A stretch of 64,000 nt of DNA from assembly GCA_963764985.1 (NCBI GenBank), contig CAVXUI010000005.1, forward strand, positions 145,569 to 209,568, written 5' to 3'. The notes beneath the pieces were generated by a model. It saw only the letters and a list, made by a program, of their open reading frames with translations, was not told where the DNA came from and did not search any database. The DNA is from an uncultured Chloroflexia bacterium. GTDB taxonomy: Bacteria; Chloroflexota; Anaerolineae; J036; Brachytrichaceae. Positions 1-62,022 of the stretch are shown here, in pieces (the first letter of the stretch is position 1; every line of letters starts with the position of its first letter). Made by a program: the position numbers and the translations under genes.

Positions 1-122
1 AATATTGCGGAACACGAATCCAAGTCCGCAGTCAAAAGCTCCGAAGGTCCGCCCGCGTCTGCTGCGCAGACATGGCAGGAGCCTGGCAACACTTTTGGCT
101 GCATGCCTTGCAATCAAACACT

Positions 123-1363
<1,241 letters not shown>

Positions 1364-1450
1364 GAATTCAGAATCCAGAGTCCAGAATCCAGGCATGCGC
1401 ACGCGGCACTGGCTCTTCTTTCTGGATTCTGGATTCTGGACTCTGGACTC
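1364..1450. repeat. Hairpin element with arms made of 7-nt GARTCCA units (copy 1)
   Basis: Left arm GAATTCA GAATCCA GAGTCCA GAATCCA (1364-1391). 31-nt loop. Right arm TGGATTC x2 plus TGGACTC x2 (1423-1450). Starts directly after the rhaI TAA and ends 5 nt before ATG 1456. Confidence 0.85.
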
Positions 1451-1455
1451 TACCC

Positions 1456-3508
1456 ATGCCTACCAACCTCTGGAACCCAAAATCCGCTTCCGGCCTTTCC
1501 GGTCTCGACCTGCTCGTGTATCGCTCGAATCTGCTGGGAGCGGATCGCAGCGTCTGCAATATTTTTGGCGGCAATACCGGCAGCAAGGTCGACGCGGTCG
1601 ATTTTCGCGGCCGACCAGCGCGCGTACTGTGGGTCAAAGGCAGCGGCAGCGATCTGGCCACCATGCGCGCAAAAGATTTCGCCGGCCTGCGCATGGAAGA
1701 CATTGAGCCGCTCTTTGAGCGCGACGCCATGACGGACGAGGAAATGGTCGCGTATTTGACGCAGTGTCTGAACGGCGCAAATATGCCGCGTCAGAGCATT
1801 GAGACGTTGCTGCACGCGTTTGTGCCCGCCGCGCACACCGACCACACCCACCCCGACGCGGTGATTTCGCTGGCCTGTTCAAAGAACGGCAAAAAGTGGA
1901 TGCGCGAGGTGTATGGCAAGCGTGCGGCCTGGGTCGATTACATCCGGCCCGGGTTTACGCTCAGCAAAGAGATCGGCCAGGCCGTGCGCAGCAACCCGCA
2001 GATCGAATGCGTGGTCATGGGCAAACACGGCCTGGTGACCTGGTCCGACGACCCCAAAACCTGCTACGACAACTCAATCCGCATCATCGGCGAGGCCGAG
2101 GCGTTCATCGCCCACAAGGCGCAGGGCAAGAAGGTGTTTGGCGCACCAAAAGCAGCACTGAAAGACAGGTACAGCGATTGCCGAAAGCATCCTGCCGACC
2201 CTGCGCGGCGCGGTCAGTGCTCACGGTTGCAGCGTGGTCAAGTTTGACAACAGTCCGGCCGTGATGGCCCTGGTCAACGGCGCAAACGCGGCCAAACTCG
2301 CGGCGGTCGGCGCGGCCTGCCCCGATCATCTGGTGCATACCAAACGCGTGCCGCTGTTTATCGACTGGAACGGCAAAGATGCCGCCCAGCTCAAGACCGC
2401 GATCGTCGACGGCGTCAAGAAATATCAGGAAGACTACGCGGCCTATTTCAAGGCGCATGCAGCAGAGGGCGACAAGATGTTCCACCCGGCCCCGCGCGTG
2501 ATCCTGATTCGTGGCGTCGGCATGTTCACCACCGGCAAAGACGCCGCGCTGGCCGGTGTCAGCAACCAGCTGTATCAGCGCGCGATCGCGGTGATGGCTG
2601 GCGCAACCGCGCTCGACACCTTCACGTCGCTCAGCGCTGCCGAGGCCTTTGCGATCGAGTACTGGCCGCTTGAACTTTACAAACTCGCGCAGCGCCCGCC
2701 CGATCGCGAGCTGGCCGGGCGCGTGGCGTTTATTACCGGCGGCGCCAGCGGCATCGGCCGCGCCACAGCCTATCGCCTGGCGCAGGACGGCGCGCATGTC
2801 GTCATCGCCGATCTTAATGGCCCGGGCGCACAGACCGTGGCCGATGACATCGTCAAGCGGTTTGGCGCCGATCGCGCGCGCGCCGTGGTGTGCGATGTCA
2901 CCGTCGAGGCGCAAGTGCAGGCTGCGCTCAACGTGGCTGTGCAGGCCTATGGCGGGCTGGATATCGTGGTGAACAACGCCGGGCTGGCCAGCAGCAATCC
3001 GGTCACCGAGGTCACCACCGCCGAGTGGGACAAGCTTTTTGCCGTGCTCGGGCGCGGCTACTTCATGGTTGCGCGCGAGGCCTTTCGCATCATGCAGCAG
3101 CAGGCTCTCGGCGGCAGCATCATCTTTGTGGCCAGCAAAAACGGCCTGATCGGCAGCAAAAACGCCTCGGCATACGGCGCGGCCAAAGCCGCCGAGATCA
3201 ACTTGGCGCGTTGCTTGGCTGAGGAAGGCGGCGCACTTGGCATCCGCGTCAACACCGTCTGCCCGGATGCGGTGCTGACCGGCAGCGCGATCTGGAGTTC
3301 CGACTGGAAGGAAGCGCGCGCCAAGAGCATGGGCATCCGCGTCGATCAGCTCGAAGACGCCTACCGCCAGCGCAACACGCTCAAAGTCAGCATCTATCCG
3401 GAAGACATCGCCGAGACGATCTCGTTCTTCGCCGGCGACCGTTCATCCAAAACCACCGGCTCAGTTGTCACGGTCGATGGCGGCGTGACGGCCGCGTATG
3501 TGAGATAA
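1456..3508 (+). CDS. rhaEW: Bifunctional rhamnulose-1-phosphate aldolase / short-chain dehydrogenase; one frame break near 2170-2240
   Basis: ORFs 1456-2247 and 2234-3508. The N-terminal part resembles a class II aldolase/adducin domain. The C-terminal part is an SDR (AFITGGASGIGRATAYRLAQDGAHVVIADL, NNAGLAS, SKNASAYGAAKAA). About 684 aa in total, as expected for the fusion. It lies between rhaI and rhaB. Confidence 0.8.
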
Positions 3509-3587
3509 GAATCCAGAGTCCAGAGTCCAGAATCCAGACATGACCGCTGTGACACGGTCTCATGTCTGGATTCTGGATTCTGGATTC
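3509..3587. repeat. Hairpin element with arms made of 7-nt GARTCCA units (copy 2)
   Basis: GAATCCA GAGTCCA GAGTCCA GAATCCA (3509-3536), inner stem GACATGA/TCATGTC, then TGGATTC x3 (3567-3587). Abuts the rhaEW TAA (3506-3508). Tail TTTACTCTGT runs into ATG 3598. Confidence 0.85.
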
Positions 3588-3597
3588 TTTACTCTGT

Positions 3598-5004
3598 ATG
3601 ACTAAATCCATTGCCCTCGCCGCCATCGATCTCGGGGCTGAAAGCGGCCGCGTGATGCTGGCAAAGTTTGACGGCGCAAAGATTCAGCTCGAGGAAGCGT
3701 TTCGCTTTCCAAATGTGCCGGTGCAGGCGGGCGACACGCTGCACTGGGATATTCTGCGGCTGTTTGGCGATATCAAGACCGGGCTTGCCGCCGCGGCGCG
3801 GCTTGCAAACGGCTCGCTGGCCGGCGTCGGTGTCGACACCTGGGGCGTCGATTTTGCGCTGCTCGACGCGCAGGACAAGCTCATTGGCAACCCGGTCCAT
3901 TACCGCGACGCGCGCACAAACGGCATGGCCGAACAGGTCTATGCGCGCGTGCCGTGGCGCGATATTTTCAATCGCACCGGCATCCAGTTTTTGCAGTTCA
4001 ACACGCTGTTTCAACTGGCGGCCATGCGCTTTGGCAATGCGCCCGCGCTGGACCATGCCCGCTCACTGCTCACGGTTCCAGATTTGCTGAACTTCTGGCT
4101 GTGCGGTGTCAAAGCCAACGAATACACAAATGCCACAACCACGCAGCTGATCGACGCGCGCACGCGCGCATGGTCGCCCGAGTTGATCGGCGCGCTCGAT
4201 TTGCCGGCGCGTCTGTTCGAACAGCCGCTGGCGCCGCCGTGCAGTGTGCTGGGCGAAGTGCGGCCGGAGATCAAACAGGCTATGGGCGTGAGCACGCTGC
4301 CGCTGCTCTTACCGTCGACGCACGACACCGGCTCGGCCGTGGTCGGCGCGCCGCTAAGCGGCGCGCGCGATCTGTATCTGAGCAGCGGCACCTGGTCGCT
4401 GATGGGCTTCGAGTCGCCCGAGCCGATCATCAACGACACCGCGCTGGCCCACAACGTCACGAACGAAGGCGGCGTCAATGGCACCGTGCGCGTGCTCAAG
4501 AACATCATGGGCTTGTGGCTGCTGCAGGAATGCCGGCGCAATTGGGCCAAGCAAGGCCGCGACTATACCTACGAGCAGCTTGAAGCGCTGACACGCGCCG
4601 CGTCCACCCGCGCGCGCATCGCGTGCGGCGACGCGCGCTTTTTGCCGCCCGGCGACATGCCCGGCCGCATTCGCGCGTATTGCCTGGAGACCGGGCAAAC
4701 GCCACCCGAAACCGACGGCGAGATCGCGCGCTGCGTGATCGAGAGCCTGGCACAGGAATATGCCGATGTCGCCGCGAAGTTCGACGACCTGGCCGGCCAC
4801 CGCCACGAGACGATTCACGTCATCGGCGGCGGCTCGCAAAACGCGTTGCTGAACGAGCTGACTGCGCAGACCACAGGCCGGCGCGTGGTGGCCGGGCCAG
4901 TGGAGGCCACCGCGCTGGGCAACGTGATTGCGCAGTTGGTGGCGCTGGGCGAGTTGTCATCGTGCGCAGACGGGCGTGCGATTGTGCGAGCCACAGGCGC
5001 GTAG
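3598..5004 (+). CDS. rhaB: Rhamnulokinase (FGGY carbohydrate kinase)
   Basis: ORF 3562-5004. The first 12 codons translate the hairpin arm, so the likely start is ATG 3598 (MTKSIALAAIDLGAESGRV). FGGY-type motifs DTWGVDFALLD and HVIGGGSQNALLNELTAQ. Rhamnose gene context. Confidence 0.8.
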   Translation: MTKSIALAAIDLGAESGRVMLAKFDGAKIQLEEAFRFPNVPVQAGDTLHWDILRLFGDIKTGLAAAARLANGSLAGVGVDTWGVDFALLDAQDKLIGNPVHYRDARTNGMAEQVYARVPWRDIFNRTGIQFLQFNTLFQLAAMRFGNAPALDHARSLLTVPDLLNFWLCGVKANEYTNATTTQLIDARTRAWSPELIGALDLPARLFEQPLAPPCSVLGEVRPEIKQAMGVSTLPLLLPSTHDTGSAVVGAPLSGARDLYLSSGTWSLMGFESPEPIINDTALAHNVTNEGGVNGTVRVLKNIMGLWLLQECRRNWAKQGRDYTYEQLEALTRAASTRARIACGDARFLPPGDMPGRIRAYCLETGQTPPETDGEIARCVIESLAQEYADVAAKFDDLAGHRHETIHVIGGGSQNALLNELTAQTTGRRVVAGPVEATALGNVIAQLVALGELSSCADGRAIVRATGA

Positions 5005-5025: not shown

Positions 5026-5099
5026 GAAGAAGAAGAAGCCACAGATTTCACAGATTGGATAACAACGCAATCTGTGAAATCTGTGGCTTCTTCTTCTTC
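5026..5099. repeat. Perfect 32-bp hairpin (possible bidirectional terminator) between convergent rhaB and iolD
   Basis: GAAGAAGAAGAAGCCACAGATTTCACAGATTG (5026-5057), 10-nt loop, exact reverse complement at 5068-5099. The arm contains (GAA)4 plus two CACAGATTK units. Confidence 0.8.
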
Positions 5100-5129: not shown

Positions 5130-7008
5130 TTAGTACTCGCGTTCTTTCGCGCGCATCGTCGTCCACTCGGCGCGTTGCGCGCGTACCTCGGGGCTCTCGC
5201 TGACTTCGGCCGGTGGCACGTCCCACCAGCTGTAGCCCGGCACGCCCACATAGCGGTCGTTGCGCACATAGATCACAGTCGTGGTTGCCACGGTTTTGGC
5301 CGCTTGCAAGCGCCTCCACAAATTCGTCGTAGCCCTCGGCGCGAATCACATGCGCGCCCAGGCTGCGGGCGTTCATCGCCAGATCGACCGGCAACTCGCG
5401 CGGATCCTGCGCGTCGTCGCCCGTCACACGGCCGTTTTCCTGGATAGGCATAGCGCGTGCCAAACCCACCTTGCCCCAGCGAGCGACTAAGACCGCCGAT
5501 GCTCTTGTAACCGCTGTTGTCCATCAGGATCATCGGTCAGCTTGAAGCCTTCCTGAATCGAGGTGATGATCTCCTGCGACAGCATCAGATACGAGCCATC
5601 GCCGACCAACACATAGACTTCGCGCTCGGGTTCGGCCATCTTGATGCCCAGGCCACCGGCAATTTCGTAGCCCATCGTGCTAAAGCCATAGTCCAGGTGA
5701 TATTGCGATGGATGGCGCGCCCGCCATAGCTTGTGCAGATCGCCGGGCAGGCTGCCCGCCGCGTTGATCATGACCGCCTCTGGGTCGCCCAGGTCGTTGA
5801 CCGCGCCGATCAGCTCGCTCTGGCTGGGCAGCGGCGTGTTGCGGATCCGCGTAGAAGCCGTCGACCTCGGCCTCCCACTCGTTGTGCAGCTCGCTGGCGC
5901 GCGCGCGGTGATCCGGCATCGACCTGACCAGCCAGCCAGCGCCCGTGCAGCTCTTCCAGCGTTGCGCTTGCATCGCCAACCAAGCCGAGTGCGCTGTGTT
6001 TGGCGCATCGAACTCGGCCACGTTGATGTTGATAAAGCGCACGGCCGGGTTTTGCAACAGCGTCTTGCTGGCGGTGGTAAAATCGCTGTAGCGCGTGCCG
6101 ATGCCGATCACCAGATCGGCGTCTTCGGCGATGGCGTTGGCGCGCCGGCGTGCCGGTCACGCCGATGCCGCCCAGGCACAGCGCGTGGTCATAGCGCAGG
6201 CTGCCTTTGCCGGCCATGGTCTCGCCCACCGGGATGCCGGTTGCGTCCACAAAGTGCTGTCAGCGTCTCCGTGGCCTCGCTGTAGCGCACGCCGCCGCCA
6301 GCCACGATCATCGGCTTTTTGCTGGCGCGAATCCACTCGGCCGCGACCTGCAGCGCGTCGCGGTCCGGCCGGTTGCGCGGGATCGTCCAGACGCGCTTCT
6401 CAAACAGCGCAGTCGGGTAATCGAACGCTTCGGTCTGCACGTCTTGCGGCAGACACAGCGTGACCGCGCCGGTATCGACCGGGCTGGTCAGCACGCGCAT
6501 CACTTCGGGCAGGGCGGTGATCAATTGATCCGGGCGATAGATGCGATCCCAATAGCGGCTGACCGGTTTGAAGCAATCGTTGACCTGAAATATCCTGTGA
6601 GTGCTCGCTTTCGAGTTGCTGCAGCACTGGCGCCACATTGCGGCGCGCAAAAATATCGCCGGGCAACAGCAGCACCGGCAGGCGGTTGACCGTCGCCAGC
6701 GCCGCGCCAGTGATCATGTTGGTCGCGCCGGGGCCGATCGAGCTGGTGCAGGCCAGCGTGCGCAGCCGGTTGCTGTGCTTGGCATAGGCCGCCGCAGCGT
6801 GCACCATGGCCTGCTCGTTGCGGCACTGGTAATAGCGAAAGTCCGGGTTCTGTTGCAGCGCCTGCCCCATGCCGGAGATGTTGCCATGGCCAAAAATGCC
6901 AAAGCAGCCGCCAAAGAACGCGCGTTCCTGTCCATCGCGCACGGAAAACTGCGCGTGCAAATAACGAATGACGGCTTGCGCCACCGTCAGGCGAATACGT
7001 GTTGTCAT
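5130..7008 (-). CDS. iolD: 3D-(3,5/4)-trihydroxycyclohexane-1,2-dione acylhydrolase (TPP enzyme, IolD); at least 5 frame breaks
   Basis: N-terminal ORF 6400-7008 ([63 protein letters not shown]). Further pieces in ORFs 6189-6650, 5810-6250, 5680-6111, 5487-6008 ([30 protein letters not shown]) and 5273-5533. C-terminal ORF 5130-5321 ([17 protein letters not shown]). Confidence 0.75.
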
Positions 7009-13724: not shown

Positions 13725-13736
13725 GGACCGATGAGA

Positions 13737-13821
13737 AGGTTAGCCACAGAGGTCACGGAGGAACGGAGTAAGACCAATCGCTTTTTTTCTCCGTGTCCTC
13801 TGTGACCTCTGTGGCTAACCT
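13737..13821. repeat. Long imperfect hairpin (arms of about 32 nt) with CACAGAGGT-type units
   Basis: Left arm AGGTTAGCCACAGAGGTCACGGAGGAACGGAG (13737-13768). Right arm CTCCGTGTCCTCTGTGACCTCTGTGGCTAACCT (13789-13821). One mismatch and one bulge. Confidence 0.8.
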
Positions 13822-13892
13822 ACTTCCTGACAGTTGCTGACAGATTTGACAAAATACTTGAATTCATCGGCTAGATTCTTACACTGACGTGC

Positions 13893-14192
13893 ATGCAAGA
13901 TCCATTGACTGAACAGATCATCGCGGCGGCGATTGAGGTGCATCGATTGTTAGGCCCGGGGTTGCTCGAGTCAATTTACGAACAGGCGTTGTGTGTCGAG
14001 CTGACGCTGCGCGGTTTGAAAGTAGAGCAACAGGTGTATCTCCGTCGACACTCAGAATCTGTGAGTAAACTACCGGATGTGGCGCTCGCGCAAGCACTGT
14101 CATACCTGCGGGCCACCGGTCTGCAACGCGGTCTGCTGATCAACTTCGGCCTATCCCGTCTGATCGATGGCCTAAAGCGCGTTTCGTTATAA
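13893..14192 (+). pseudogene. GxxExxY-family (PD-(D/E)XK-like) protein remnant with an internal deletion
   Basis: N-terminus IIAAAIEVHRLLGPGLLESIYEQALCVELTLRGLKVEQQV and C-terminus AQALSYLRATGLQRGLLINFG match the family. About 30 residues of the central core (the usual Y-K-G ... D-L-L-V-E ... E-L-K segment) are missing. The protein is 99 aa versus the usual ~125. Confidence 0.65.
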
Positions 14193-14206
14193 AAGAAAAT
14201 CTTCCC

Positions 14207-14234
14207 CTCCGTGCTCTCTATGACCTCTGTGGCT
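14207..14234. repeat. Solo half-arm copy of the 13789-13821 hairpin arm
   Basis: CTCCGTGCTCTCTATGACCTCTGTGGCT versus CTCCGTGTCCTCTGTGACCTCTGTGGCT (3 differences in 28). It contains the in-frame ATG (14220) of argH. Confidence 0.75.
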
Positions 14235-15638
14235 GAAAAAACTTCCCCTCCCTCCCCTTCTACTTCAAAGCTCTGGGGCGGTCGGTTCACCGGTGAACTC
14301 GACGCCTGATGAAACAATTTCAACGACTCGCTGCCGTTCGACATCCGCCTGTGGGAAGTGGATATTACCGGCAGCATGGCGTATGCGCGCGCGATTGCAA
14401 AGTCCGGCATCATCACACAGCGTGAATCAGGACGCTGCTTGCTGGCCTCGATGCAGTGTTTGCCGAGTTCGCTGCCGGCAAATTCGTGGGCAAGGACAGC
14501 GATGAGGACATCCACACCGCCGTCGAGCGGCGCTTAAAGAAATCGTCGGCGATGTGGCTGGCAAATTGCACACCGGCCGCAGCCGCAACGATCAGGTTGC
14601 GACCGACCACCGGCTCTATTGCCGCAGTGCGGTGGCTAAACTGCACAACGGCGTTTCTCAGTTGCAAACCGCGCTGGTGGCGCAGGCCGACGCCAACATA
14701 GAGCACGTTGATGCCGGGATACACGCATCTCCAGCGCGCGCAACCGATTACATTTGCGCATTGGGCGTTGGCCTACGTCTGGCAACTGCAGCGTGATCGC
14801 GAACGCCTAAACGACGCGCTCAAGCGCATCAATATTTCGCCGCTCGGCTCCGGCGCGCTGGCCGGCAATCCGTTCGGGCTGGACCGTGAAGCGCTCGCGC
14901 GAGATCTCGGTTTTGACGGCGTCACCGAAAACTCGCTCGATGGCGTCAGCGACCGCGATTTTGTGGCCGAGTTGTTGTTTTGCTGCGCGATGATCGGGCT
15001 GCATCTCTCACGGCTGGCCGAAGACATGGTCTTGTACTCAAGCACCGAGTTTGGCTTTGTCACGTTTGCCGATGCCTACAGCACGGGCTCGTCGATCATG
15101 CCGCAGAAGAAAAACCCGGATGCGATGGAGCTCACGCGCGGCAAGAGCGGGCCGGCTGATCGGCAACCTTGTCAGCCTGCTGACGGTCATCAAGGGCTTG
15201 CCGATGACCTACAACAAAGACATGCAGGAGGACAAAGAAGGGCTGTTCGATTCGATCGACACGCTAACGATGACACTGAGGTCGCAAGTGGCGCAATCGC
15301 AACGCTCAAGGTAAACCCGGACAAGATGCGGGCCGCCATGGATCCGGCCATGCTGGCGACCGATGTCGCCGAATATCTGGTCCGCGCGGGCGTGCCGTTT
15401 CGCACCGCGCATCACCTGAGCGGCCAAGCGGTGGCGCTGGCCGAAAAGCTGGGCATCCAAATGAGCGACGCTATCAGCTGAACAGTGGCGCGGCATCTCG
15501 CCGCACTTTGCCGCGGACATCAAACGCGTATTTGATTTTGCGCAGTCGGTCAATTCGCGCGATGTCATCGGCGGGACAGCCGCGCGCTCGATAAAGACGC
15601 AGTTGCGCAAAGCCCGCGCCGCGATGCGCCAGGTGTAG
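14220..15638 (+). CDS. argH: Argininosuccinate lyase; several frame breaks
   Basis: SKLWGGRF is in frame with ATG 14220. Other pieces: [43 protein letters not shown] (ORF 14554-14796), [53 protein letters not shown] (ORF 14708-15481), [19 protein letters not shown] (ORF 15051-15314). TAG at 15636-15638. Confidence 0.85.
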
Positions 15639-22098: not shown

Positions 22099-23613
22099 AT
22101 GACTCGAACCCGTTTTGCCCCGTCACCCACAGGCTTTCTTGCATGTCGGCGCGCATTCGCACCGCGTTGTTTTCCTGGCTGCATGGCCGGACAGGCAGGC
22201 GGCCAGTTTTTCCTGCGGCTCGAGGACACCGATCAGGAGCGCTATGTGCCGACCTCGCCGCGCCAGATCATCGAGAGCTTTCAATGGCTCGGGTTGGCGC
22301 TGGATGGCGGGCCGGATCACGGCGAGCTCAAGAAATGAAGGTGGACGAGGATTTCCCCGGCGCGCTCGGCGATGGCGAGTCCGCGGCATCCCGGGGCCCT
22401 TTGTGCAGTCGCAGCGGCTTGCCGATATACAAAGAGCATGCCGAGCAGCTGATCGCGCCGGCGCGGCCTATCGCGCCAATGAAACGGCGGCAGAACTCGA
22501 GCCGATGCGCAAAGCGGCCGACGCCGAAAAGCGCGGCATTTTGATTCACCGAGGCGTCGCGCGTGCGCACCGCAGATCCACCCGGCCACGCCGCATGTGG
22601 TGCGCTTTGACATGGCGCGATAGCGGCGACACCGTGCTCGACGATGCGATTCTGGGCGACGTCACCTTTCACAACGGCAACCTCGGCTCGGACCCGGTGA
22701 TCCTGAAGAGTGATGGATACGCGACCTATCATCTGGCCGCAATGGTGGATGATCATTTGCAGGGCGTGACGCATGTGGTGCGCAGCCAGGAGTGGCAGCC
22801 CAGCGCGCCGATGCACATCCAGATCATCCAGGCCTTTGGCTGGGAGCTGCCGGTATTTGCGCATGTGCCGCGGGTCAACGGGCACGATGGCAAAAAGCTC
22901 AGCAAGCGCACCGGCGCGCAGAGCGTGTTTGAGTTTCGCGACCAAGGCTATCTGCGCGAGGCCATGCTCAATTTTCTGGCCATGCTGGGCTGGGCGCCAG
23001 GCGGCGGCAGCGAGCAAAATGTGTTCACGCTGGACAATTGATCGCACAGTTTACGCTCGGCCAAGTGGGCAAATCGCCCGCGATGTTTGAATACCCAAAG
23101 CTCGACTGGCTCAACGAGCAGCACATTCAACGGCTGCCTCACGACCGAGCTTGCAGATCGGCTGATTGCCATTTCTCGACAAAGATGGCCTCAAGATCGA
23201 CACGCAGGCCAAACGCGATTTGCTGGTGCGCATCGTGCCGCTGATCAACACGCGCATCAAAAAGCTGACCGAAGCCACGCCATTTATCGACTTCATGTTT
23301 AGCGACATCGCCCCGCCCGCCCGCCGACATGCTGATTGGCCCGAAGATGGAGCAGCATCTGTCGTTGCATGCGCTGCGGGCGTCAAAGGCGTTGATCGAG
23401 GGGCTCGGGCAATTTGACGAAGCCGCGCTGGAAACCGCGTTTCGCGAGCTGGGCGAGGCGTTGCAACTCAAGCCGGCTCAGCTGTTTACGATCATGCGCA
23501 ATGCGGTCAGCGGCAAGTCCGTCACCCCGCCGCTGTTTGGCACCATGGTGGTGCTCGGCCGCGAGACCGTGCTGAAACGGCTGGCAATCGCCGAACAGGT
23601 GTTGTCGGCGTAG
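22099..23613 (+). CDS. gltX: Glutamate--tRNA ligase; at least 5 frame breaks
   Basis: MTRTRFAPSPTGFL.., FFLRLEDTDQERY, ILKSDGYATYHLAAMVDDHLQGVTHVVRSQEWQPSAPMHIQIIQAFGWELPVFAHVP..KLSKR. C-terminal ORF 23329-23613. Confidence 0.85.
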
Positions 23614-23678
23614 GTGGAGCCCACGGTAGGTGGAGCCCACCTTCGAGGTGGGCTCCACCTACCGTGGGCTCCACTTAC
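23610..23678. repeat. 32-bp hairpin made of two 16-nt units per arm; both convergent stop codons lie inside the stem
   Basis: (GTAGGTGGAGCCCACS)x2 at 23610-23641, loop TTCGA, complement at 23647-23678 (1 mismatch). The gltX TAG (23611-23613) and the S8 protease TAA (23675-23677, minus strand) are both in the stem. Confidence 0.85.
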
Positions 23679-25935
23679 GGCGTCGCGCTGAATGCCACGT
23701 CGTCAATCAGCAGGTAGCTGCCATCCTGCTCATCTGCTTCGAACGCAAAACGCAACGAGACGCCGCGTCCGACGTAGGTGCTCAAGTCGATTGACGTTCT
23801 TTGCCATCCCAGCTGCACCGGGTTGCCGGTGTTGTCCAGGGTCTCGCACAGATTGCGCGTGTCGACCACGACACCATCGATCATGACACGCGCAACGTCA
23901 TTCTCAGGGCAAGCACCGCTGACCAACGACTCGCGGCTGATCGTGAGCGCGTAGAACGTCAGATAGCGCGCATCGGCCGGCACCAGCACGCGCTGGTAAA
24001 CGCTGGCGTTTTCGCTGAGGCCGCTGCACGAGCGAAACCAGATCGCAGACTGTCCGCTACGCGGCGCAATTGAGGGCAGCGCGCTCACCCACTGCGGATC
24101 ATCAGACGCGTAAATGCCTTTGAACGCCGCGGTGGACGAAACCTGCCAGGCGGAGAGGCCCGCTTCAAAGTCGCCGTTTGCCAGGTCGGTCGCGGCTGGC
24201 AGTTCAGGCAGCCCGCCGATCAGCGGAATCAGATGTTTAAAAGGCCGTAGAACGCACGAGGCCGGCGCTGTTTGCGCCGGCCCGGTTGAAACTTTCACAG
24301 GACTGTTCATCTTGCCACCGCCGAGCCTGCGGCCCGGCGGTGCTGCGCTGCCCTTGCGGGCAAGCGGCAGGAGAATCTTGTTGTCGAGTGTCGGCAGCGT
24401 ATCGACAAATGTGACTGCGGCAAACGCGTTGGCGATGCCTGGTACCGCAACCGTTGGTGATGCAGTTGCTTCCTGCTTGGAAAGTCGGTCGAGGTGTTTT
24501 GTAAAATCTCGATCACGCGCGGCGTAGTGAGATAGGCGCGCTGCGATAGCATCAGCGATACGATGCCGGCCACATGCGGCGCAGCCATGCTGGTGCCCAC
24601 CTCGAGACCGTAGTTCATCGCTGCCGGCACAGTCGTGCCCGCGTTCAAGGTCGAAATGATGCCGGCGCCGACGGTGGGTGATGCGCCGCCAGGCGCCGCG
24701 ATAGTGACGCGGGTGCCAAAGTTGCTGTAGCTGGCGCGGTTGCCATCGCGCGTCGTAGCGGCAACCGAGACCACGCCGATGCAGTTTGCCGGCCGCGAAG
24801 ACGTGACGTTGAGGTTTTCATTGCCAGCAGCTGCCACGACGACGGCACCGGTTGCCAATACATCGTTCACCGCGAGTTGATAGAACTCGCCGTTGCGATC
24901 GATTTGTCCGTTCGAGAATGTGCGCACTGTGCAGGGCCCGGGGCCGCCCAGGCTCAGATTCAGCACGCGCGCCGGGGTCGGGTTGCGCACAGTGCCGGGC
25001 ACTGTCAAGCCGACGGCCCAGCGCATGCCATCGACAATGTCTGATGTGTAGCCAGCGCCGCATTTTGCCAGCACCCGCACCGGGACGATTTTCGACACCC
25101 AGTTGATGCCGGCCACGCCCTCACCGTTGTTGCCTGCGGCGCCAATCGTGCCTGCTACATGGCTGCCATGCCAGCTGCTGCGCGTCCCGCAACGATAGTA
25201 ATCAGAATTGACATTTGTGGCTTCGGCGCTGCTGACATAGTCCCCCGGGTCGCTTGGATCGGTATCGCGACCGTTGCCATCGCGCGTGAAATCCGGGTCG
25301 GTCGGATCGGAGCTGACCATATCCTGCCCGCCGGTGTAGCGGCCGGCAAAATCAGGGTGCGCTTTCAGAATGCCGGTGTCAAGCACCGCGACATAGATAT
25401 CTTTTGAGCCGGTGATGACGTCCCAGGCGCGTTCGGCATCGATGCCAAAGTCGCCCGAGGCTGGATCGGCAAAATGCCACTGGCTGCCAAACTCGGTGTC
25501 GTCCGGCGTGAATAGCGCATAGAGTTTTTCGTCGACGACGGCGTAATCGACTTCCGGCAGTTCGGACAGCGACGCTGCCATCAGCGCCGCAGCCTCCCCC
25601 GTCACCGGGGCAGCCAGGTTAAACACCTGAGCCTCGCCCGACATATCGCGCGCAAACGTCATGTCTACCCCGATATGCGCACCCATCGTCGCTGCGATGC
25701 GATTCAGCGCCATGCTGCGCTCGAACCCATCTGTCTGCAGCGTGCCAAGCGCGCTGGCGGGCTTGAACTTGACAATCAGCCGGGAGATCTTGTCCGCTCC
25801 TGGTCGCGCATGTTGCGCCGGGCCGCGCGTCTCAACGAAACTGGTCGCATTGGCCGCAGAACGCTCCGCCACACCCGTAACACTGATGGCAGCCGCTATC
25901 GCAAGCAGGCCATGAACAAACGTTTTTCGGTTCAT
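23675..25935 (-). CDS. Secreted S8 (subtilisin-family) serine peptidase with a ~240-aa C-terminal extension; two close frame breaks at ~24440-24480
   Basis: Signal peptide MNRKTFVHGLLAIAAAISV (ATG 25935). Catalytic regions VAVLDTGI, SWHGSHVAGT, GTSMAAPHVAG. After ..TDFP two 1-nt shifts give AGSNCITNGCGTGIANAFAAVTFVDTLP...GGKMNSPVKV, which reads in frame into ORF 23675-24310. Confidence 0.75.
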
Positions 25936-26025: not shown

Positions 26026-26074
26026 GGCGAAATTGCCATATCCCTCGCGGCGCGAGGGATATGGCAATTTCGCC
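26026..26074. repeat. 24-bp hairpin, ATATCCC family (copy 1)
   Basis: GGCGAAATTGCCATATCCCTCGCG (26026-26049) and its exact complement (26051-26074). Lies downstream of queG and upstream of the S8 protease (both on the minus strand). Confidence 0.8.
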
Positions 26075-27208: not shown

Positions 27209-27289
27209 GTGCTTAAAGTGCTTAAAGTGCTTAAAGTGCTTAAAGTGCTTAAAGTGCTTAAAGTGCTTAAAGTGCTTAAAGTGCTTAAA
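27209..27289. repeat. Tandem array of nine perfect copies of the 9-nt unit GTGCTTAAA
   Basis: 81 nt, counted directly. Preceded by GGGAAGAAAAG, which abuts the queG start codon (27195-27197 on the minus strand). No inverted partner arm is nearby. Confidence 0.95.
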
Positions 27290-27400
27290 GTCTAACGGGT
27301 TGTGTCGCGCCGTGTCAATGCAATCACCTGCTCTTAAGTGACATGGTAAGTGATGCATCCAGAGTTGAGCGAACAGCCACGCGTGACACGCTCGACGTGT

Positions 27401-30132: not shown

Positions 30133-30179
30133 GGCGATTTCGCATATCCCCCGCAAAGCGGGGGATATGCGAAATCGCC
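30133..30179. repeat. 22-bp hairpin, ATATCCC family (copy 2), between convergent glcE and NUDIX genes
   Basis: GGCGATTTCGCATATCCCCCGC, loop AAA, then GCGGGGGATATGCGAAATCGCC. Related in sequence to the arm at 26026-26049. Confidence 0.8.
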
Positions 30180-30999: not shown

Positions 31000-32095
31000 A
31001 GGCCTTGTCAAAAATAACCGCTACAAGTTAGGGAGCGGGTCGGTAGCATAGCTGGATATGCAGGAGCCGATCAAACGGAAGTATCTGCGATTGGTATCGA
31101 CGCTGAATGAACGGGAACGGCGGCTGTGGGCGACAAATGAAGCCAAGACAATGGGTTACGGCGGTGTGAGTCTGGTATCGCGGGCATCGGGTATTTCGCG
31201 TAGTGCGATACACACAGGCCTCACCGAGCTCAAGGAATTGAACAGCTTTGGCAATCTGCTGGACGATCGGATACGAAAGCTTGGTGGCGGACGTAAGCAT
31301 CTGACTCAGCAATACCCGCGACTGAACGACGAGTTACTGAAGCTGGTTGAACCACAAACACGTGGAGACCCGAAGTCAGCGTTGTGCTGGGTAGCAAAAA
31401 GCAGCCGCGCGCTGGCGACTGAGCTTGAAGCCAAGGGGATTGCAGTGTGTCATCAGAGCGTTTGTGCCGTACTCAGCGCGGCAGGTTACAGCTTGCAGGC
31501 CAATCAAAAGACGCTTGGGAAAGGGATTCCAGATGGCGTCTATGACATCCAAGCAAACGAAGCATGGGTCAGTGTGGGCAACGATCACGACACCGCCCAA
31601 TTTGCAGTAGCCAGCTTGCAGGCGTGGTGGCGCAACATGGGGCAACAGCGATACGGTGACATCAACGGCATTTTGATCACAGCCGACAGCGGTGGCAGCA
31701 ATGGAAATCGATCACGGTTGTGAAAGTTGTCGTTGCAAGAGTGGGTAAATCAAATGGGCGTGCCAGTCAGCGTGTGTCATTACCCACAAGGAACAAGCAA
31801 GTGGAATCGTATTGAGCACAGGCTATTCAGCCAAATCACCCTCAACTGGCGTGGTCGCCCACTAACCAGCATTGAGTTGATCGTCAACTTGATACAGAAC
31901 ACGACGACTCAAACGGGCTTGTGCGTCAACGTCGCGCTCGATCCGGGCAAGTATCCGACAGGAACCAAAGTGTCCGATGCAGACTATGCAATGATACGTT
32001 TGCGCCAAGCCGCATTTCATGGCGAATGGAATTACACGACTTTGCCAGTGGCTTGAAGTATGGAAGTTGTAGCACTTATTGTTTGACAAGGCCTT
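31000..32095 (+). mobile_element. Decayed ISAzo13-like insertion sequence
   Basis: Terminal inverted repeats AGGCCTTGTCAAAAATAACCGCTACAAG (from 31000) and the reverse complement of ..TTGTAGCACTTATTGTTTGACAAGGCCT (to 32094). The first 13 nt are identical, with about 28 of 33 matching overall. TA dinucleotides abut both ends. GC is visibly lower than in the flanks. Confidence 0.75.
31058..32056 (+). pseudogene. ISAzo13-family DDE transposase, frameshifted and internally deleted
   Basis: ORFs 31058-31723 and 31727-32056: RLWATNEAKTMGYGGVSLVSRASGISRSAI, WVSVGNDHDTAQFAVASLQAWW, ITADSGGSNGNRSRL / VCHYPQGTSKWNRIEHRLFSQITLNWRGRPL. The junction ANQKTLGKGIPDGVYD skips about 70 residues found in full-length family members (~450 aa). 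Confidence 0.75.
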
Positions 32096-39955: not shown

Positions 39956-40052
39956 AAGTACTTAATAAAGTGCTTAAGGTGCTTGAAGTGTTACGGTGCT
40001 GAGCAATGCCTGAAGCACTTTAGGCACCTCAAGCACTTTTAAGCACCTTCTC
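39954..40052. repeat. Imperfect hairpin built from 9-nt GTGCTTAAR-like units
   Basis: Left arm AGAAGTACTTAATAAAGTGCTTAAGGTGCTTGAAGTG. Right arm CACTTTAGGCACCTCAAGCACTTTTAAGCACCTTCT. About 80% complementary. Begins inside the mreD TAG and ends 28 nt before the mrdA ATG. Confidence 0.75.
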
Positions 40053-43821: not shown

Positions 43822-43833
43822 ATTTTACAGACA

Positions 43834-43920
43834 GGGAAGAAGGTGCATAAAGTGCATAAGGTGCTTAAGGTTGAGCGCCGCAACCTTAAGCACCTTATGC
43901 ACTTTATGCACCTTCTTCCC
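43834..43920. repeat. Perfect 40-bp hairpin built from GTGCWTAAR units
   Basis: GGGAAGAAG GTGCATAAA GTGCATAAG GTGCTTAAG GTTG (43834-43873), 7-nt loop, exact complement at 43881-43920. Lies 12 nt from the GNAT ATG (minus strand) and 54 nt from the LCP ATG (plus strand). Confidence 0.9.
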
Positions 43921-43974
43921 TGCGTCCACCCAAAGTAGGAGGCACGTTGCCACACTGCGTGTTTTAATTGGAGT

Positions 43975-45540: not shown

Positions 45541-45588
45541 AGAAGCCGGGAATAAGCCCGGCATATGCCGGGCTTATTCCCGGCTTCT
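45541..45588. repeat. Loop-less perfect 48-nt palindrome between convergent genes (possible terminator)
   Basis: AGAAGCCGGGAATAAGCCCGGCAT followed by ATGCCGGGCTTATTCCCGGCTTCT. Its right end is flush with the minus-strand TAA at 45589-45591. Confidence 0.85.
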
Positions 45589-49992: not shown

Positions 49993-50113
49993 GCCACCGG
50001 CAATTGTGGCGCAAAACGCAAAAATCGCACATACCGGCCGGGCGCATTGCTGAACCCGGCCGGTATGTGCGATTTGGCGCCTCTTCACGCCCCCCAATCG
50101 CGCCGTTGCAACG

Positions 50114-54442: not shown

Positions 54443-55782
54443 TTACCGTCTTCCTCGCTTCAACCCGCCCATCAACATTTTGGCGCGCGGGTCGTTAGAC
54501 AACTTTTTCATCATGTCCTGCGCATCGCGAAACTGCTTAAGCATCTGGTTCAATTCCTGAACCGTTGCCCCGCTGCCGGCTGCCACACGACGTTTTCTCG
54601 AGGCGTTTAGTAGATCCGGTCGATGACGCTCTTCACGCGTCATCGAGCTGATCAACGCTTCCACCCGTTTGAACTGCTTCTCGGTGCTCCAGGCGCCAGG
54701 TCCTTCATGGCTTCTTTTGCGCCCGGAATCATCGCCAGCAGGTCGCTCAGCGGCCCCATCTTCTTGATCTGTTTCATCTGGCCGAGAAAGTCCTCCAGAT
54801 CGAACTTGCTCGTCATCATCTTCTCGGCCGCGGCTGCGGCTTCGGTTTCGTCAAACTGCGATTGCGCGCTGCTCGATCAGCGTCATCACATCGCCCATGC
54901 CCAGGATGCGCGAGGCCAGGCGATCCGGGTGGAAGATTTCAAAGGCATCGGCTTTTTCGCCGGTCGCCAGAAACTTGATCGGCACGCCGGTGACAGCGCG
55001 CATCGAAATCGCCGCGCCGCCGCGCGCATCGCCATCGACTTTGGTCAGAATTAACCCGGTCAGGCTAACCTTTTTGTTGAACGCGTCGGCCACATTGACC
55101 GCTTCCTGGCCGATCATGGCGTCGGCCACCAGCAGCACTTCCTGCGGCTTGGTGCGCTGGCGGATCTCGGCGATCTCATTCATCAACGTTTCGTTGATTT
55201 GCAGACGACCAGCGGTATCGAGGATCACGATGTCATAGGCGCCGGCGATCGCCTTTTGCAGCGCGTTCTGGCAAATAATCGGCGGCGCAACTTTGTCGCC
55301 CTCCGAGTGCACCGGAATTTGCAGCTGTTTGCCGAGCTGCTCAAGCTGGGTGATGGCGGCCGGGCGGTAAATGTCCGCCGCGACCAGCATGGGCCGATGC
55401 CCGCTGCTGCGCAGTTTCAGCGCCAGTTTCGCCGCTGTGGTGGTTTTGCCCGCGCCCTGCAGACCGACCAACATGATGACGTGGGGCGCCGGGCCGCCTC
55501 AGATCCAACCGCCCGCCCTCGCCTAGCGTGGCGAGCAGTTCGTCGTGCACAATCTTGATGACCGCTTGGCCCGGGCGTTAGGCTCTTGTGCACTTCTGCG
55601 CCGACAGCGCGTTCGCGCACGCGTGTCAAAAACTCTTTGACGACTTTGAAGTTGACATCGGCTTCAAGCAGCGCGACACGCACCTCGCGCATGGCTTCGT
55701 CCACGTCTTTCTCCGTCAAAAAACCACGCTTTCCGAGGCGGTCAAAAATGGCCTGAAGTTTGTCTCCGAGTGCGTCGAACAT
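54443..55782 (-). CDS. ffh: Signal recognition particle protein Ffh; at least 3 frame breaks
   Basis: ORF 55417-55782 ([27 protein letters not shown]), ORF 54851-55474 ([37 protein letters not shown]), ORF 54443-54664 (M-domain tail [23 protein letters not shown]). Confidence 0.9.
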
Positions 55783-60524: not shown

Positions 60525-61910
60525 TTAGCGCGGGACCTCGGTCCCGAGTTCGCGCGCGCGCAGCGCCAGCCCAGCCGCCACGCCCGTAAACAAATCCTGC
60601 TGCACCACGCGATCTGCGCCAAAGCGTTTGACGAGCATGTCGACAAAACACGGGATCGCGGACGAACCCCCGGTGCGCACGACGGCGTCGATCTGATCCG
60701 CGCGCGTGCCTGCGCGCAACAGCACGTCATCGATCAATTCGCCGATCTGGCGGCGCTCCTGCGCGATAAAGGCCTCGAAGTTGCGGCGCGTCAGGGGATG
60801 CCAGATGTCAATCGCGCCGGATTCGTATTCAATAAACGAGACGTTGGCTTGCGTAAGCCCGACCTTGGCCTGTTCGACGCGTTCGTAGACGTCGTAGCCA
60901 TAGCCCTTCCCGATCAGTTCCTCGAGCGCGAGCAGCCGGATCGGGTCGTCACAGTCTTGCTGTGCCTCGCGCAGAAAGCCAAGGATATCGGCATTGCTGA
61001 GCATCGGGATGTTTTGCCAGTCGCCGAGTGCGTCCATCAGGTGGGTCGGCATGGTCATGCGGCCGGGTCCCCAGCGCACATCGCGGCCAAACCACGGCAG
61101 CAGCGCGCGGTTGAAGATGGCCTGGTCGAAGTGATCGCCAGCGATGCCGATGCCGCCGGTCGCGACCACATGCTGGGCGCCGTTGGCGTCAAACCGAACC
61201 ACGGCCAGATCGAGCGTGCCGCCGCCGAAGTCGAATACAAATGCATGCCGGGTTTGTTGCGCGCGCGCTTCAAGGCCAAACGCCAGCGCCGCACCGATCG
61301 GTTCCATCTCAAACGCGACCTCGGTAAACCCGGCCAGCCGCGCCGCTTCAGCCAGTCGCGCCTGCGCGCGCTCGTTGTCGGCCGCGTTTGCGACATTGGC
61401 GAAGTTGACCGGCCTGCCAAAAACAGCCGCGGTTGGCGCACGCCCCAACTCAGTGCCTATGCGAAAACGAACCTGGTCGAGAAAGGCGGCGATCAGGTCT
61501 TCGAGCGAGTAGTCTTTGCCAAAGAGCGATGTGCCGGCATACGTTGTCGCGAGCGGCCCCTTGAGCGTGTGCAGCAGCCGGCCGGGCGCATCGGCATCGA
61601 CATCGGTAAACACGTCGACGATCACCGCCCCACCCTTCAGGTCGTACCCCTTCGCCAGCAACTCGCCCAGCTCAAGATCGATCGTGCCGATGTATTTCTT
61701 GACAAAGCGAGGCACCCGCCCGACGTTCTGCTTGCGATACAACGAGATTGCCTGCCGGCCGATGTGCAGCGTCTGATCGCGTTCGACATACAACGCCGTG
61801 CGCAGCGTGTCGCGGCCGTCGTCCAGCGGCAAAATGCGCGGACGCGCGTCGCCCGCGCCAATTACAGCGGCGACGGTGTTTGTGGTGCCGAAGTCAATGC
61901 CTAAGAACAT
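60525..61910 (-). CDS. YegD-like Hsp70-family ATPase (actin-fold, no substrate-binding domain)
   Basis: ATG 61910 (MFLGIDFGTTNT). GRPVNF..ERAQARLAEAARLAGFTEVAFEMEPIGAAL, FDFGGGTLDLAVV, VRTGGSSAIP. About 461 aa, with the same architecture as E. coli YegD as I recall it. Confidence 0.75.
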   Translation of the reverse strand: MFLGIDFGTTNTVAAVIGAGDARPRILPLDDGRDTLRTALYVERDQTLHIGRQAISLYRKQNVGRVPRFVKKYIGTIDLELGELLAKGYDLKGGAVIVDVFTDVDADAPGRLLHTLKGPLATTYAGTSLFGKDYSLEDLIAAFLDQVRFRIGTELGRAPTAAVFGRPVNFANVANAADNERAQARLAEAARLAGFTEVAFEMEPIGAALAFGLEARAQQTRHAFVFDFGGGTLDLAVVRFDANGAQHVVATGGIGIAGDHFDQAIFNRALLPWFGRDVRWGPGRMTMPTHLMDALGDWQNIPMLSNADILGFLREAQQDCDDPIRLLALEELIGKGYGYDVYERVEQAKVGLTQANVSFIEYESGAIDIWHPLTRRNFEAFIAQERRQIGELIDDVLLRAGTRADQIDAVVRTGGSSAIPCFVDMLVKRFGADRVVQQDLFTGVAAGLALRARELGTEVPR

Positions 61911-61922
61911 GGGGAGAGTAAA

Positions 61923-62022
61923 GAATCTAGAATCCAGAATCCAGACATGAAGCATGCCCGCGGTTAGTCGTCTGAGTGATGAATGTCGGACGCATGTCTG
62001 GATTTGGATTTTCTGGATTCTT
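61923..62022. repeat. Hairpin element with arms made of 7-nt GARTCCA units (copy 3, more degenerate)
   Basis: GAATCTA GAATCCA GAATCCA GACATG (61923-61949) ... CATGTC TGGATTT GGATTTTC TGGATTC (61993-62020). In gene (minus) orientation it reads TGA-AGAATCCAG...GATTCTTTACTCTCCCC-ATG. Confidence 0.85.

Follow-up and report, generated by a model that had tools for sequence, protein, structure and literature searches.

What are the hairpins that fill the space between consecutive genes at three junctions of this DNA, how would they have arisen, and what might they do there? The window, that is, the whole 64-kb stretch analysed, is part of a Thermoflexales-like Chloroflexota genome, and its DnaB is closest to those of Thermoflexales/Anaerolineae. 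Direct reading locates three hairpins, all intergenic and lying between co-directional ORFs at a stop codon, whose arms consist of tandem GARTCCA and TGGAYTC heptamers around a loop (Table 1). A sequence-only reading had reported hairpins with heptamer arms, in three copies and within operons, and direct reading, shuffles and folding confirm them. In all three copies the 5' edge lies 0-1 nt past the stop codon and the 3' edge 5-12 nt ahead of the next ATG. The placement flush with the stop was correctly described, whereas the range of 5-10 nt given for the distance to the ATG was too narrow (5, 10 and 12 nt in copies 1, 2 and 3, respectively).

Table 1. Positions of the three heptamer hairpins, their flanking codons and the other unit arrays of the window
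Feature	Position	Strand	Composition or context	Evidence
rhaI stop codon	1361-1363	+	TAA	direct reading
Copy 1, whole hairpin	1364-1450	+		direct reading
Copy 1, 5' arm	1364-1391	+	GAATTCA GAATCCA GAGTCCA GAATCCA	direct reading, TRF
Copy 1, loop	1392-1422	+	31 nt	folding
Copy 1, 3' arm	1423-1450	+	TGGATTC x2, TGGACTC x2	direct reading, TRF
Leader and rhaEW start	1451-1458	+	TACCC, then ATG at 1456	direct reading
rhaEW stop codon	3506-3508	+	TAA	direct reading
Copy 2, whole hairpin	3509-3587	+		direct reading
Copy 2, 5' arm	3509-3543	+	GAATCCA GAGTCCA GAGTCCA GAATCCA (3509-3536), then inner stem GACATGA	
Copy 2, loop	3544-3559	+	16 nt	folding
Copy 2, 3' arm	3560-3587	+	inner stem TCATGTC, then TGGATTC x3 (units 3567-3587)	
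Tail and rhaB start	3588-3600	+	TTTACTCTGT, then ATG at 3598	
Stop codon of a 374-aa ORF without family match	62022-62024	-	TGA, then one A	
Copy 3, whole hairpin	61923-62020	-		direct reading
Copy 3, 5' arm (sense)	61993-62020	-	GAATCCA GAAAATCCA AATCCA, then inner stem GACATG	
Copy 3, loop	61950-61992	-	43 nt	
Copy 3, 3' arm	61923-61949	-	CATGTC, TGGATTC x2, TAGATTC	
Tail and start of Hsp70-like gene	61908-61922	-	12-nt tail TTTACTCTCCCC, then ATG (61910-61908); protein begins MFLGIDFGTTN	
Hairpin past rhaB	5026-5099		perfect 32-nt arms, GAA x4 + CACAGATTT units; 21 nt past rhaB stop	
Hairpin past dnaC-like gene	13734-13824		9-nt units, CACAGAGGT type; 9 nt past dnaC-like stop	
Direct array	27209-27291		GTGCTTAAA x9.2, 100% matches; 11 nt upstream of queG ATG (minus strand)	
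Hairpin near PBP2 gene	39967-40048		9-nt units, AAGGTGCTT type; upstream of PBP2 gene	
Hairpin between divergent genes	43832-43922		9-nt units, AAGGTGCAT type, perfect 42-nt arms	

TRF counts 3.4-4.6 period-7 copies per arm, and an independent repeat search returns identical arms. The first unit of copy 1, GAATTCA, is one base off GARTCCA, and the units of copy 3 carry small indels. The loops of the three copies are unrelated in sequence. Copies 2 and 3, 58 kb apart and in unrelated contexts, have in common an inner stem (CCAGACATG/CATGTCTGG) and a tail (GATTCTTTACTCT) that were not seen with the GAATCCA arrays of other phyla, which points to copying or conversion inside the genome. That all three copies share one orientation, as had been proposed, says nothing about the arms, since an (X)n-loop-(X')n layout is identical to its reverse complement.

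The two-unit pattern matches 13 times against 0.01 expected from shuffles. Predicted folds range from -43 to -59 kcal/mol (z = -5.3 to -9.2, with no shuffle as good), the predicted stems being 28-36 bp long and the stop-to-start spacers 85-111 nt. Assuming transcription from the operon context, the predicted near-perfect duplex would exceed the ~20 bp criterion of RNase III-type enzymes. Rfam 15 yields no match at the gathering score, and its sub-threshold matches are only to eukaryotic miRNA-precursor models, that is, to generic long hairpins. Sense and antisense folds are equally strong (12 vs 12 oriented hairpins, mean difference 0.03 kcal/mol), so the transcribed strand bears no G.U mark of selection, and this symmetry counts against the reading preferred below. 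In constrained folding, the start region is predicted to become modestly more accessible in 4 of 5 cases when a ribosome is held at the stop; the predicted unmasking is absent in the related genome L200, and both its small extent and this absence reflect the ability of repeated arms to re-pair in a shifted register.

The names RhaI, RhaEW and RhaB are backed by NCBIfam and Pfam. The RhaEW start agrees with the N-termini of homologues (MPTNLWNP vs MPKNLWNE / MPDNRWNP), and that of RhaB is backed by length (468 aa vs 467 aa in a homologue). The database places the rhaB start erroneously at ATG 3562, within the hairpin, an example of how such hairpins mislead start-codon calling. Three frame breaks interrupt rhaI in the assembly; frame breaks leave some gene boundaries uncertain, which counts against the reading preferred below.

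A metagenome scan with RhaB recovered relatives of at most 57% identity, nearer ones being reached only via protein search. In two of the latter, L200 and L201 (RhaB 74-75% identical), a heptamer hairpin is also found at the rhaI stop, beginning in or at the stop codon and finishing 8-12 nt ahead of the ATG. Their units, GATTCCA/AATTCCA and AATTGCA/AATTTCA, are altered on both arms relative to the window, a concerted change of the two arms. Unit number varies among related genomes at this junction and the inverted-pair type is retained (L200, L201). Since equivalent hairpins occur in independently assembled genomes at this same junction, an assembly artefact, a possibility raised by the sequence-only reading, is excluded; its suggestion of slippage-prone units is borne out by unit number and sequence, which vary from copy to copy and from one orthologous locus to another. 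The comparison of orthologous intergenic regions that it had advised thus reveals hairpins with turned-over units in close relatives, while more distant ones have spacers of 3-24 nt, or overlaps, without hairpin. In hairpin-free L203 the junction reads TAA + CTCTTTCCCC + ATG, compared with TAA + hairpin + CTCTACCC + ATG in the window, where CTCTACCC-ATG matches the L203 spacer and start; as L203 shows, the window hairpin would have been inserted exactly between the rhaI stop and an ancestral 10-nt leader. The gene rhaEW, flanked by two hairpin copies in the window, is missing from the rhaI-rhaB interval of the two nearest relatives, and unit hairpins may mediate such deletions between direct copies. 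Further stop-to-start hairpins were detected in relatives, at 116-217 of L201 and at the dnaB junction of L207, 5 nt before the ATG.

These hairpins are not an isolated family. Three copies had been correctly counted, yet the window and its relatives also hold hairpins of other 7-9-nt units. In the Thermoflexales-like lineage, tandem units of 7-9 nt, frequently arranged in inverted pairs, fill many intergenic gaps, and the unit sequence tends to be locus-specific, with at least six unrelated unit sequences across the window and relatives. Two of the hairpins, at 43832-43922 and 5026-5099, lie between divergent or convergent genes, so placement is not purely intercistronic. Period-7 arrays number 19 in 131 kb (the window plus fragments of relatives) vs none in shuffles, and 248 in 824 kb of genomes found by a GARTCCA scan, where unselected rhaB loci have 9 in 696 kb; about half of these 248 use units other than GARTCCA. 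The ValRS gene of L207 holds in-frame heptamer arrays, which implies that a mutational process writes such arrays. GARTCCA arrays themselves occur in at least 119 loci of many phyla and are enriched directly at stop codons, 17 of the 47 that follow a long ORF beginning -3 to +3 nt from its stop vs ~5 expected under uniform positions. For ~9 of 23 oriented hairpins from other phyla, a long ORF starts within ~26 nt downstream. Avoidance of stop codons in all six frames was also considered as a property of the units; it is true for GARTCCA and fails for AGTTGAG and GAGATTA in relatives.

Arms of tandem units and a placement flush with the stop had been regarded as undescribed, but Rehm et al. 2015 (PMC4692102) describe both in Xanthomonas. 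Their study concerns heptameric SSRs, GGGAATC in Xanthomonas and GGGGAYT in Nostoc, and names Mrazek et al. 2007 as the source for the excess of such repeats in bacteria. The Xanthomonas arrays have a mode of four units, form 70-75 convergent inverted pairs per genome, and are ~90% intergenic, mostly between co-directional ORFs with a strong bias to touch or overlap the stop codon; the pairs are transcribed, transcripts begin or end there more often than in controls, and unit number differs between species with the single or paired type being kept (PMC4692102). The window hairpins resemble these pairs in having ~4 head-to-tail 7-nt units, convergent arrays with stem-loop potential, co-directional neighbours and a position at the stop, and heptamers are over-represented among the repeats of the window and its relatives, as in the type studied by Rehm et al. 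The Xanthomonas unit is G-rich (GGGNATC) and a G-quadruplex was proposed for it, whereas GARTCCA/TGGAYTC units lack any stretch of three consecutive G, making the quadruplex reading inapplicable: the window hairpins belong to the broader heptamer class, outside its G4 subclass. They also differ in host phylum (Chloroflexota rather than that of Xanthomonas or Nostoc), in the distance to the downstream ORF (5-12 nt vs a mean of 160 nt) and in having locus-specific units in their lineage instead of one genome-wide unit. They are thus a lineage-specific case of the described paired heptamer microsatellites, the Xanthomonas pairs being the closest kind. More remote are the cyanobacterial STRR heptamers (Mazel 1990, as summarized in a citing paper) and the TAACTGA direct repeats of Beggiatoaceae, cyanobacteria and Bacteroidetes, sets of which lie a few nt upstream of start codons in RBS-poor regions and for which a role in translation was proposed (MacGregor 2015, PMC4679880). 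Tandem heptamers in intergenic DNA are common to both of these and to the window; STRR and TAACTGA repeats are nearly all direct and of one unit (169 direct sets vs 1 inverted), whereas the window hairpins are inverted pairs with long stems.

Among better-known structures, Neisseria Correia elements and Yersinia ERIC are transcribed MITE hairpins cut by RNases, and phage T7 has RNase III sites between cistrons. These are likewise long double-stranded stems in polycistronic mRNA that set ends and stability there, although they have a conserved sequence or terminal inverted repeats with TA duplications, unlike the window hairpins, which by analogy would most plausibly work in the same manner. 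RNA-unfolding translational coupling, as at the f1 gene VII/IX hairpin, provides another parallel and requires the upstream stop in or beside the hairpin (PMC12548453). There too a long hairpin ends just ahead of the downstream start, but the f1 hairpin is a single evolved structure, whereas the window hairpins are microsatellites, for which coupling would be a candidate role.

We give about an even chance to the explanation that these are microsatellite hairpins made by slippage and template switching, tolerated at operon junctions, and acting as RNA stem-loops. The element is an inverted pair, (GARTCCA)~4 - loop - (TGGAYTC)~4, in which replication slippage together with template switching or conversion between arms would preserve self-complementarity. 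Such a process would be very active in the Thermoflexales-like lineage, generating locus-specific 7-9-nt arrays in gaps and even in frame within genes. At operon junctions the hairpins occupy precisely the interval that separates the upstream stop from the next cistron's own 5-12-nt leader, where they would be co-transcribed with the operon and fold into a 28-36-bp stem-loop. The stem may bring stop and start side by side despite the 85-111-nt spacer, thus keeping the junction compact. It may also be processed and affect expression, as intercistronic punctuation: a barrier to 3' exonucleases, a target for double-strand-specific cleavage by an enzyme of RNase III type, and a structure that a terminating ribosome would need to open at its base in order to free the next start. 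Against a functional role, template switching alone would maintain arm complementarity without function, the predicted unmasking is modest, and in a synthetic operon, according to a review (PMC12548453), structure directly past the stop correlated negatively with coupling (Chemla 2020).

Several alternatives were considered among known element classes. REP/BIME elements, known from enterobacteria and pseudomonads, are extragenic palindromes within operons with proposed roles as mRNA stabilisers or terminators. The resemblance to them suggested from sequence remains a reasonable functional analogy as far as an RNA stem-loop role is concerned; membership fails, as REPs are conserved palindromes of 20-40 nt that carry a GTAG or CGTC tag, are associated with RAYT transposases and lack tandem-unit arms, while the window hairpins lack such a tagged palindrome, have arms of tandem units and unrelated loops, and no Y1 (RAYT-type) transposase was found in ~50 ORFs scanned with Pfam (the window being 64 kb of a contig of at least 299 kb, with many genes frame-broken). 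The only transposase matches in these ORFs are ISAzo13-type DDE fragments. Separate REP-like palindromes are present in the window at 23606-23682, 26026-26074 and 30133-30179. The GARTCCA hairpins number three in the 64 kb of the window. A MITE was rejected on the unrelated loops and on flanks without direct repeat, direct reading having found no target-site duplication (a TA duplication was sought and is not consistent). A mobile element of REP/MITE type whose transposase prefers sites beside stop codons is consequently very unlikely, even though copies 2 and 3 share inner stem and tail and REP elements are known beside stop codons, for its units would also have to change between loci and between orthologous sites. 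An intrinsic terminator or attenuator inside the operon would fit a stable stem directly after a gene and the moderately U-rich tail of copies 2 and 3 (UUCUUUACUCU), but it is extremely improbable: a terminator scan does not call the three hairpins, their loops measure 16-43 nt, a U tract (5 or more U in 8 bases) is lacking, and the next cistron begins 5-12 nt on in a conserved operon. On the preferred reading, the hairpins are thus distinct from REP, MITE and terminator elements. Integron attC sites (no GTTRRRY core, no integrase) and CRISPR (no spacers) were also discarded, the flanking genes being of core metabolism. Hardly conceivable, finally, are DNA-level iterons for a sequence-specific protein such as a heptad-binding ribbon-helix-helix regulator; 7-bp periodicity and the direct-plus-inverted layout recall heptad operator arrays, as in the omega/pSM19035 system, yet no single binding specificity fits at least six unrelated units in the window and relatives, and the position is intercistronic, not at promoters.

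Two other explanations differ on function. The hairpins could be neutral or selfish DNA, a slippage and template-switch bias of the lineage filling tolerated gaps, with stop and start merely marking the limit set by selection and the RNA hairpin being inconsequential. Units that vary by locus, in-frame arrays even in ValRS, fold energies without strand asymmetry, heptamer richness as a whole-genome property and relatives that function on 3-24-nt hairpin-free spacers all agree with this view. We consider it rather unlikely, though a serious contender: ribosomes and RNases are unlikely to overlook a 28-36-bp stem that ends 5-12 nt ahead of a start, in a lineage where only 14 of 45 called genes of relatives have a Shine-Dalgarno motif, a hairpin is kept at the rhaI stop across genomes with RhaB ~75% identical despite unit turnover, and inverted pairs, not direct arrays, cover the whole gap at junctions. 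At the opposite end, a selected coupling or shunting device, in which the stem joins stop and start so that a terminating ribosome or 30S subunit re-initiates across it and the arms slide in 7-nt registers, would fit the geometry of the three copies and L200/L201 (0-1 nt from the stop, 5-12 nt from the ATG), an ancestral spacer of 10 nt typical of coupled genes, the rarity of Shine-Dalgarno motifs and the partial exposure of the start that constrained folding predicts. It is nonetheless quite unlikely, as a ribosome positioned on the stop opens no more than roughly one unit, L200 shows no unmasking, unit hairpins also occur where coupling is impossible (43832-43922, 5026-5099), and no bacterial case of shunting across a 30-bp stem was found in the review PMC12548453.

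Tolerated slippage hairpins acting as RNA stem-loops, the explanation we prefer, bear on a wider question. Heptamer over-representation in bacteria is known and its cause unexplained, the only detailed study having read G-quadruplexes into it. The same architecture built from a unit unable to form quadruplexes suggests that the common denominator lies in the 7-nt period together with the hairpin rather than in G tracts. A bolder and decidedly improbable extension is that selection has widely favoured heptamer hairpins as a means of adding length to an operon junction while its coupling is preserved, with re-initiation across the stem as a bacterial analogue of shunting, and with register sliding and slippage tuning cistron ratios over evolution in lineages of several phyla that seldom use Shine-Dalgarno motifs. 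The stop-to-leader geometry, the concerted turnover of units and the occurrence of the motif in many phyla make slippage-driven operon punctuation a testable idea.

The three hairpins lie exactly where the sequence-only reading placed them, as direct reading confirms. The two-unit motif occurs 13 times in the window against 0.01 expected, and the three hairpins have fold energies of -43 to -59 kcal/mol (z-scores -5.3 to -9.2). Gene identities at their junctions are backed by Pfam and NCBIfam and the start codons by the N-termini of homologues. The public RhaB gene call (P0001, 480 aa) begins at an ATG (3562) within the copy 2 stem; 467-aa homologues back the ATG at 3598. Copy 3 is flanked by a 374-aa ORF upstream and an Hsp70-like gene downstream. 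The shared orientation of the arms in the three copies adds nothing to the argument of the sequence-only reading, because (X)n-loop-(X')n equals its own reverse complement. The inner stem and tail are common to copies 2 and 3 and absent from arrays of other phyla, which implies that some copying or conversion between loci occurs within the genome.

Repeat-containing features and frame-broken regions of the window and of comparison loci (L-numbers) from other genomes or metagenome contigs
Feature	Location	Details
Copy 1	rhaI TAA 1361-1363; rhaEW ATG 1456	GAATTCA GAATCCA GAGTCCA GAATCCA directly after TAA; 31-nt loop; TGGATTC x2, TGGACTC x2; TACCC before ATG
Copy 2	rhaEW TAA 3506-3508; rhaB ATG 3598	Four 5' units; added inner stem GACATGA/TCATGTC; 16-nt loop; TGGATTC x3; TTTACTCTGT before ATG
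Copy 3	TGA 62024-62022; ATG 61910	Minus strand; layout as copies 1 and 2
rhaI-rhaB hairpin region	L200 9913-10003; L201 2462-2559	Compared with window 1361-3600
Hairpin	5026-5099	Perfect 32-nt arms; GAA x4 plus CACAGATTT units
Hairpin, dnaC-like/argH junction	13734-13824	9-nt units, CACAGAGGT type
Same junction	L205 10190-10272	REP-like palindrome
Same junction	L207 13662-13741	Short 8-nt-unit structure
Same junction	L206 4714-4717	Overlapping genes
Hairpin	39967-40048	9-nt units, AAGGTGCWT type
Hairpin	43832-43922	AAGGTGCWT-type 9-nt units; perfect 42-nt arms; divergent genes either side
Perfect direct array	27209-27291	GTGCTTAAA x9.2; 11 nt upstream of queG start, minus strand
REP-like palindromes	26026-26074, 30133-30179, 50022-50075; L205 4733-4781, 10226-10272	GGCGAnnnnGCATATnCCCCGC; 1-3-nt loop
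Double palindrome	23606-23682	16-nt units, GTAGGTGGAGCCCACG; GTAG-tagged REP style
Loopless perfect 24-nt palindrome	45541-45588	AGAAGCCGGGAATAAGCCCGGCAT / ATGCCGGGCTTATTCCCGGCTTCT; convergent genes either side
ISAzo13-type DDE transposase fragments (PF07592)	31052-32056	Split by a stop codon
Frame-break regions	1-3508, 5680-6713, 13893-15481, 22103-23613, 54851-55498	
Heptamer arrays in ValRS (one a hairpin)	L207 4116-4144, 4692-4759, 5096-5126	QSPISNLQS; KIENEELRMKNEEFKIQNSKFSIS; ESEIQNLKSKIQN
Gap upstream of rhaB homologue	L122 about 5900-5975	GGAGTAC
Gap upstream of rhaB homologue	L148 about 5900-5985	GGGAGAWR
Gap upstream of rhaB homologue	L196 about 5920-5995	AACGTAA plus CCAGCAT

Orthologous junctions, whose comparison was proposed with the sequence-only reading, bear on the origin of the rhaI hairpin: the closest RhaB relatives, L200 and L201 (74-75% identical), also carry a hairpin, with its unit sequence altered on both arms. 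There rhaB directly follows rhaI, and the spacers of 85 and 92 nt are heptamer hairpins whose start lies within or at the rhaI stop codon and whose end lies 8-12 nt upstream of the ATG. The units are GATTCCA/AATTCCA in L200 and AATTGCA/AATTTCA in L201 versus GAATCCA in the window, with the changes mirrored on the 3' arm in both, and the hairpin has thus since turned over on both arms in concert. Remoter relatives (62-70% identical) have spacers of 3, 6 or 24 nt, or overlapping genes; one of them, L203, reads QAGGYQS-TAA, CTCTTTCCCC, ATG where the window reads QAGGYQS-TAA, hairpin, CTCTACCC, ATG. The short spacers and this match show that the hairpin was added precisely between the stop codon and the ancestral leader, at a formerly tight junction. 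In L200 and L201 no rhaEW separates rhaI from rhaB and the junction carries one hairpin; rhaEW of the window has a copy with the same GARTCCA unit on each side, and recombination between direct hairpins could have deleted rhaEW.

By DnaB, the window belongs to the Chloroflexota, closest to Thermoflexales/Anaerolineae. Across 131 kb of the window and fragments of its relatives, TRF detected 19 period-7, 3 period-8 and 6 period-9 arrays; Markov shuffles yielded no arrays of period 7 or 8 and, for period 9, about 0.1 per shuffle. The relative L207 is dense in hairpins of other 7- and 8-nt units, one of which starts just past the dnaB stop and stops 5 nt short of the next ATG; its ValRS gene even contains heptamer arrays translated in frame. 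Tandem-unit-arm hairpins in the window likewise extend beyond copies 1-3, and the AAGGTGCWT-type units are akin to that of the direct array upstream of queG. At the dnaC-like/argH junction the element differs genome by genome, and junctions that follow a stop codon seem to be hot spots of palindrome insertion. The window and L205 (DnaB 83% identical) also have in common a distinct, conserved family of REP-like palindromes, and in the GTAG-tagged palindrome the TAG is the stop codon of a GluRS anticodon-binding-domain ORF. Many window genes contain frame breaks, three in rhaI (read through frames 3>2>1>2) and one in rhaEW (near 2171-2238); splits or truncations affect the TPP enzyme, GluRS, argH and SRP54 genes, and segments of frame-broken genes are still 74-84% identical to relatives. 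Such pervasive breaks suggest indel errors of long-read assembly or recent pseudogene decay.

Scanning one genome per species for three or more GARTCCA units revealed at least 119 loci in Planctomycetota, Verrucomicrobiota, Acidobacteriota, Gemmatimonadota, Lentisphaerota, Bacteroidota, cyanobacteria and others. A complementary downstream array pairs with the GARTCCA array in 55 of the 119 (about 46%), giving 48 distinct hairpins when both strands and the window are included. Among 47 arrays following a long ORF, 17 start within -3 to +3 nt of the stop, compared with about 5 expected under uniform positions, and a long ORF starts within about 26 nt downstream of roughly 9 of 23 oriented hairpins. 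In 824 kb from GARTCCA-bearing genomes there are 248 period-7 arrays, of which about half use different units, versus 9 in 696 kb of unselected rhaB loci, so heptamer richness characterizes particular genomes. In unrelated metagenome contigs (L122, L148, L196), the gap just 5' of rhaB homologues is likewise taken up by tandem-unit hairpins or arrays, which begin at the stop codon.

Recognition by a sequence-specific protein or transposase is unlikely given the diverse units, unrelated loops and lack of target duplication; the roughly 50 ORFs scanned yielded no Y1 transposase, the only transposase sequences being the ISAzo13-type fragments. A terminator scan did not call the hairpins, which are thus no canonical terminators, and no Rfam family matches them. 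The best-supported explanation is a microsatellite arising by slippage and template switching, which would survive at gene junctions by folding away. The predicted 28-36-bp RNA stem would span from the stop to 5-12 nt short of the start and should act as an RNase barrier or substrate. The downstream start should also rely in part on the upstream ribosome to open the stem base; a Shine-Dalgarno motif precedes just 14 of the 45 genes called in the relatives. A neutral reading of the hairpins is a serious rival to such roles: the antisense strand folds as well as the sense strand (12 versus 12 oriented hairpins), and modelling gives modest unmasking of the start, with none in L200. We therefore only infer a function, the supporting tests being weak.

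Tandem-unit arms at a stop-flush site had been thought undescribed, wrongly so, since both Rehm et al. (2015, PMC4692102) and MacGregor (2015, PMC4679880) describe heptamer arrays, the latter TAACTGA arrays immediately upstream of start codons. Xanthomonas genomes each carry 183-186 GGGAATC-type heptamer repeats with a clear mode of four units and 70-75 convergent inverted pairs; about 90% are intergenic, chiefly between co-directional ORFs, with a strong bias towards positions at or overlapping the stop codon (Rehm et al. 2015, PMC4692102). They are transcribed, transcript starts and stops are commoner inside them than in controls, and their length differs between species while the type is kept (PMC4692102). 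As relayed in Rehm et al. (2015, PMC4692102), Mrazek (2007) found heptamers to be over-represented generally, for which polymerase slippage has been hypothesized. Unlike the Xanthomonas heptamers, GARTCCA is not G-rich and hence forms no quadruplex, units in the window lineage are locus-specific, and the elements also adjoin the downstream start; they come, moreover, from a phylum new for such repeats. The hairpins are real, and represent a previously undescribed form of a repeat type that is already known, though poorly understood.
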